From Spongospora subterranea f. sp. subterranea (taxonomy: Eukaryota), in assembly GCA_049724395.1 (NCBI GenBank), contig JAUGWO010000054.1, positions 1 through 58,463 on the forward strand: 58,463 bases of DNA, read 5' to 3'. Numbering within the stretch: position 1 is the first letter of the stretch; each line of letters begins with the position of its first letter. The translations under genes and the position numbers were made by a program. Shown in pieces: positions 3,415 through 3,440 of this stretch. The notes under the pieces were generated by a model. The model saw nothing but the letters and a program-made list of their open reading frames with translations. It made no database searches and was not told the origin of the DNA.

Positions 3415-3429
3415 GATTAAGAGTCCCAC
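3415..3429 (+). promoter_or_regulatory. Primer-binding site complementary to the anticodon arm of tRNA-Lys(CUU)
   Basis: GATTAAGAGTCCCAC directly abuts the LTR. Its reverse complement GTGGGACT-CTT-AATC is a Lys-CTT anticodon stem-loop. Conserved in the remnant at 2628-2641. Confidence 0.8.
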
Positions 3430-3440
3430 CCTGCTCCAAA

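Follow-up and report, generated by a model that had tools for sequence, protein, structure and literature searches.

Analysis of the window (the whole 58,463-nt stretch of DNA) revealed an LTR retrotransposon of the Ty1/copia type spanning positions 3245–7304, together with a remnant of a sister family on the minus strand and a tRNA-Glu gene. The features were located as follows.

2077–2542, minus strand: gag fragment of the sister family, with the frame broken near 2244 (tblastn)
2628–2641, minus strand: 14-nt primer site in the sister-family remnant
3240–3244, plus strand: left target-site duplication TTATA, matching 7305–7309
3245–3414, plus strand: 5′ LTR, 170 nt, with TA..TA termini
3415–3428, plus strand: core of the primer-binding site, predicted complement of tRNA-Lys(CUU) nt 40 to 27, with zero spacer from the LTR
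3429–3436, plus strand: possible extension of the primer-binding site, a weak candidate
3441–5975, plus strand: gag-protease-integrase and the start of RT, in a single frame from the first ATG (Pfam)
5875–7165, plus strand: remainder of RT plus the RNase H region, spread over two more frames (Pfam RVT_2; tblastn of intact relatives)
7119–7128, plus strand: putative polypurine tract, its CGAAGG as far ahead of the LTR as in the related loci L001 and L002
7129–7304, plus strand: 3′ LTR, 176 nt
7305–7309, plus strand: right target-site duplication TTATA
7318–7391, plus strand: tRNA-Glu(CTC) gene (ARAGORN; Rfam RF00005, 57.8 bits)

The limits of the 5′ LTR (3245–3414) were fixed by the 3′ LTR at 7129–7304 and by the 5-bp target duplication TTATA, and the sole difference between the two repeats (170 and 176 nt) was one 6-nt microsatellite unit. 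The paired LTRs and the 5-bp target duplication are consistent with the Ty1/copia type, and the Pfam domains at 3441–5975 (Retrotran_gag_2, Pol_BBD, gag_pre-integrs, rve, SH3_retrovirus and the start of RVT_2) followed the copia order gag-protease-integrase-RT, with the RNase H region recognized only by tblastn to relatives and partly absent here. The LTRs ended in TA..TA and not in the canonical TG..CA. Such ends do not disqualify the element from copia, because they are a known non-canonical type occurring mostly in copia, according to the available part of the source (bioRxiv 10.1101/137141).

The window copy had two frame changes in RT and, near 6946, a gap of about 70 codons in the RNase H region, as judged by tblastn of intact relatives. 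At both frame-change sites the contigs of all four runs examined differed from the window, and extra sequence was present at the gap near 6946 in contigs of runs X2 and X3; the frame breaks and the gap are therefore either private to the window copy or assembly errors. Long contig pieces over the element showed few differences from the window, and contig depth relative to the right flank was about 20-fold in runs X1 and X5 and 4- to 5-fold in runs X2 and X3, which is a rough hint of copy number and not copy number itself. Read only in this way, the element appears to be young and multi-copy. Of the 24 runs listed, 4 carried a rhizosphere metatranscriptome label (shares of 0.26–0.30), and none was a small-RNA library. 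As to the host, a flippase piece had a single protein match, to Plasmodiophora brassicae at 55%, and among 12 matches for a phosphatase piece Spongospora subterranea ranked first at 65%, followed by one at 31%; a plasmodiophorid is inferred from these.

Repeats of other kinds were also found in the window. A 58-nt stretch at 3113–3170 had very high contig depth (bin of 19,365 in X1, where the flank has about 60) with many different flanks, and is probably where a short repeat of high copy number ends. Tandem arrays were located at 1–553 (64-nt units) and at 29284–30556 (35-nt units, about 36 copies), and long inverted repeats at 795–952, 43326–43568 and 52741–54900, with arms of 69, 111 and 81+118 nt, respectively. 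A piece of a DDE_Tnp_4 transposase was detected by Pfam at 42057–42686.

The motif GATTAAGAGTCCCAC begins at 3415, the first base past the 5′ LTR, and thus directly abuts the LTR end at 3414, as described in the initial annotation. Two further details of that annotation were borne out: no TGG-type primer-binding site occurred within the first 8 nt past the window LTR, the first TGG being at offset 27, and the GAGCA reported a few nucleotides further on was found as its reverse complement, TGCTC, at 3432–3436. The 14-mer of 3415–3428 recurs exactly at 2628–2641 on the minus strand, with about 0.0005 exact matches expected in the window from base composition. When up to two mismatches were allowed, the window held two matches in total, compared with a chance mean of 0.33, and 1 of 100 shuffles reached two. 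This second copy had been ascribed to a diverged remnant; the exact 14-mer stands, but the remnant does not represent a decayed member of the window element's own family. It is instead a gag fragment of a sister family, with 41–44% amino acid identity to the window element and 46–66% to P0007, one of the proteins described below.

A search based on integrase residues yielded 62 proteins, 15 of which (P0002–P0016) were set apart at 45–74% identity. A quick tree of 60 rows, built with a midpoint root, no bootstrap and no named reference elements, and leaving out P0015, P0043, P0054, P0056 and P0060 for short matches, contained a clade of 17 rows with an SH-aLRT of 100. This clade comprised 14 of P0002–P0016, the window element, and L001 and L002, the only two clade members among the 67 copia-like loci of a metagenome scan. 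These two loci were 47% and 53% identical to the window element in the best segment, and 60–62% over the integrase core. No relatives were present among 85 pattern matches in viral contigs or among 45 in genome contigs. The clade has the appearance of an undescribed copia group, with plasmodiophorids as its probable hosts. The longest contig for each of P0008 and P0010, which are sister proteins in the clade, was 21,757 nt, and the pair perhaps represents two elements on one contig.

The 14-mer was present in both clade loci and absent from all of the other copia-like loci (65/65). Junctions were read in four cases out of the 17 clade rows and the remnant, and in all four (window element, remnant, L001 and L002) the 14-mer followed the LTR. 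In L001 and L002, it lay directly after a 145- or 172-nt LTR, itself preceded by a CGAAGG tract like that of the window element. The intact motif in these loci sat after the LTR behind pol, and the contig's own leader then repeated, a pattern that collapsed or tandem assembly would produce; in L001 the first motif copy was degenerate. Among the four elements, none of the six pairs of LTRs was more similar than the best of its own 100 shuffles, and none of the six pairs of 60-nt leaders differed from shuffles. The 14-mer was the only sequence fixed at the LTR junction across the four elements.

The same junctions bear on priming by the 3′ CCA end of an intact tRNA, with a displaced or degenerate site, which is the commonest mode in LTR elements according to the available passages of PMC6317226. 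However, TGG was found within the first 8 nt past the LTR in none of the four elements (0/4), and no TGG occurred within 36 nt in the three elements other than that of the window. At the level of sequence, the missing TGG already largely refutes this mode, and the check proposed in the initial annotation, a better match of the motif to the 3′ CCA end of another tRNA, was run and gave no such match. Priming by an intact 3′ end is thus considered extremely unlikely.

Self-priming as in Tf1, in which the 5′ end of the element RNA pairs with the site, is predicted for some copia groups in the same passages of PMC6317226, and in L002 8 nt at the LTR end are complementary to the site. Yet the four elements had longest complements of 6, 7, 6 and 8 nt within their own LTRs, at varying places, whereas Tf1 uses 11 nt (PMC7175516) and no LTR complement of about 11 nt was found here. 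Moreover, the primer site is fixed although the LTRs are unrelated. Self-priming is highly improbable on these grounds.

The reverse complement of the 14-mer has the anatomy of an anticodon arm, with C32, T33, the anticodon CTT, A37 and A38, and with pairs 31-39 and 30-40. The 14-mer is the exact complement of nt 27–40 of a tRNA-Lys(CTT) called by ARAGORN in L069, with the anticodon at 34; this is a phage gene and not the host's. The site next to the 5′ LTR is therefore complementary to the anticodon stem-loop of this non-host tRNA, ending at nt 40. L069 is a phage contig recovered by a viral-contig scan with a pattern that already held the motif, and it is therefore evidence for the existence of such tRNA-Lys genes and not for their frequency; it fixes the tRNA identity and the register, and not the sequence of the host tRNA. 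The viral-contig pattern scans yielded one and two stretches (L068–L070), and the tRNA-Lys-like stretch of L068/L070 was not called by ARAGORN and so was set aside. The only tRNA gene in the window was that for Glu. Duplex energies between the primer-binding site and the tRNA were −30 to −45 kcal/mol, values that refer to a non-host tRNA without controls and were not counted as evidence.

Another RNA carrying the 14-mer might be the primer, such as a small RNA or a tRNA-Lys that is not nuclear-encoded, or the site might be conserved because it serves packaging or folding and not priming. An intracellular parasite is the likely host, which leaves some room for such a source, but the site reproduces the half-tRNA arrangement already known, in its exact anticodon-arm anatomy, in ending at nt 40 and in having no spacer, and these alternatives together are judged improbable.

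By analogy with known copia elements, the site at 3415 is very likely a copia primer-binding site that binds the host tRNA-Lys(CUU) cut after nt 40, from which minus-strand DNA would be primed. Such priming by a cleaved tRNA-Lys(CUU) had been proposed in the initial annotation, and it is supported by the exact complement of nt 27–40, the copia register and the conservation of the junction in four divergent clade members; the pairing geometry and the conservation are established as far as sequence comparison goes. On the model of copia and Ty5, the host tRNA-Lys(CUU) would carry the matching anticodon arm, which would open and pair with the 14-nt site. The tRNA would be cut after nt 40, in the 3′ strand of the anticodon stem, and the new 3′ end at nt 40 would start minus-strand synthesis straight into the LTR. 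In the same model, a second short block would pair with the D stem. In three of the four elements CTC follows the 14-mer core at offset 1, and the window element has it at offset 5. Position 3429 could possibly pair with nt 26, if the host tRNA has G there, and GCTC at 3433–3436 is a weak candidate for pairing with the 3′ strand of the D stem (nt 22–25), in another register in the window copy.

Several observations concern the LTR ends and the sister-family remnant. The 3′ ends of the four LTRs share a loose motif, none ending in CA: CTAATA in the window element (3409–3414), CTGATA in the remnant (2642–2647), CTGAGA in L001 (4481–4486) and TTAAGA in L002 (4344–4349). In L002, the LTR end and the primer site (4340–4359) could fold into a hairpin (8 bp, GAGA loop) that would cover the site and that the other three elements lack. 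The outer end of the remnant LTR was not located, as 2642–3244 had no similarity to the three known LTRs. A relative of 2300–2643 at 94% identity had high depth in runs X1 and X5 and flank-level depth in X2 and X3, which may mean that a second family with the 14-nt primer site is spreading in certain strains. At 2656–2887, arms of 66 nt form an inverted repeat with 92% complementarity; they start 14 nt from the remnant LTR end and are likely a MITE-like insert in the remnant LTR. TGACAG at 3231–3236 on the minus strand is similar to the TGTCAG with which the LTRs of L001 and L002 start, without further sequence support. If it were the outer end of the remnant LTR, the older element would have lain about 16 nt from the tRNA-Glu gene before the young copy arrived.

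The end of the 3′ LTR is separated from the tRNA-Glu(CTC) gene by 13 nt (7305–7317), target duplication included, and this spot just upstream of a tRNA gene may be a chosen landing site. Among the matches listed, a second flank past the LTR end was found in one X3 contig and one X2 contig, both with the same flank. Its 30 letters, read by eye, hold an A-box-like motif from flank position 21 on, exactly the place expected for nt 8 of a tRNA preceded by a 13-nt spacer; the motif was noticed after the fact, and its frequency was 19 in 116,926 window positions. The evidence for targeting consists of two sites, one firm (13 nt) and one tentative, a 30-letter flank that does not prove a tRNA gene. 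ARAGORN detected no tRNA genes in the 67 fetched copia-like loci, with the window as positive control, and L001 and L002 say nothing on targeting because both contigs end inside the element. Fixed-distance targeting, resting on two sites, has about an even chance of being correct, or somewhat better.

LTR elements found this near to tRNA genes are all gypsy, namely Ty3, Tj1, Tca8, Tyl3, Ylt1, Tyl6 and DGLT-A (PMC5911963 Table 1; PMC5006619). Among listed LTR elements, targeting of Pol III genes at such short range is confined to gypsy elements from yeasts and dictyostelids, and the copia elements Ty1, Ty2 and Ty4 use a window of about 1 kb near tRNA genes (PMC5911963; PMC5006619). The 13 nt from the window element to the mature tRNA start falls within the ranges of both DGLT-A (13–33) and Tca8 (6–30). 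In contrast to Ty3, Tj1, Tca8 and DGLT-A, which are gypsy, the window element has the copia and not the gypsy domain order. The combined proposal is that a rhizarian copia lineage uses half of a tRNA-Lys(CUU) as primer and inserts at a fixed distance of 13 nt upstream of tRNA genes, with Ty3-like targeting having evolved independently in a copia integrase and in a third eukaryotic supergroup; it could equally well hold or fail. If the 13-nt placement holds family-wide, it matters more than the primer, and finding it in a rhizarian copia element would add a new instance of convergence. True targeting would also provide a new integrase in which to seek the tethering surface.

Half-tRNA priming itself involves several tRNAs; Candida Tca2, for example, reportedly primes on a tRNA-Arg(UCU) fragment. 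In the available passages of PMC6317226 and PMC10886601, anticodon-loop priming is reported for Copia-type elements only, with several tRNAs. Among plant lineages, Osser, Bryco and Gymco-II use half tRNA-Met, whereas Bianca uses half tRNA-Ile (passages of PMC6317226); these resemble the present clade in having a half-tRNA site fixed across the lineage, whereas only Met and Ile halves are named there. In rust-fungus Copia elements and Helenus TRIMs, anticodon-loop sites match Tyr, Ile, Asp or Asn, and iMet, with repeated switches of tRNA, but tRNA-Lys is named in those passages only as a 3′-end primer, in animal Helenus and Gypsy families (PMC10886601).

The initial annotation regarded the primer as new. 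No half-tRNA-Lys primer was found in the main-text literature passages searched, and likewise no study of primer sites in plasmodiophorid copia elements. PMC13148404 and a P. brassicae assembly preprint contained no primer-site information in the parts available. The novelty of the primer tRNA, for a mechanism already known, thus extends only to its absence from these passages, and primer switching among anticodon arms has already been published (PMC10886601 and PMC6317226, in part). Because several such switches are on record, the primer alone is a modest addition. Another tRNA in the nt-40 register nevertheless suggests that the cut depends on the geometry of the anticodon arm, whichever tRNA it belongs to; this is relevant to the still unsolved origin of the half-tRNA primer.

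Comparison with AtRE1 and Tos17, whose LTR ends (TA..TA and TG..GA, respectively) are both non-canonical in the part of the source available (bioRxiv 10.1101/137141), revealed a likeness in LTR ends: the window element has TA..TA, and L001 and L002 have TG..GA. Their LTRs are likewise short (145–176 nt), and the hosts differ. In Ty5, Osser, 1731 and copia, cDNA synthesis begins from the 3′-OH of nt 40, and half-tRNA users are not monophyletic (PMC1181622, in part). As far as that source describes them, Ty5, Drosophila copia, 1731 and Osser share with the window element the copia domain order, a site flush with the LTR and a complement ending at nt 40. The window element differs from them in its predicted primer, tRNA-Lys(CUU) and not initiator Met, in its TA..TA LTR ends and in its likely rhizarian host, and it is likened to them by mechanism and not by phylogeny. 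Under the strict definition of the genus Hemivirus, the primer is a half of the initiator tRNA-Met. Because the anticodon here reads CTT and departs from that definition, the element would work like a hemivirus and is not filed as one.
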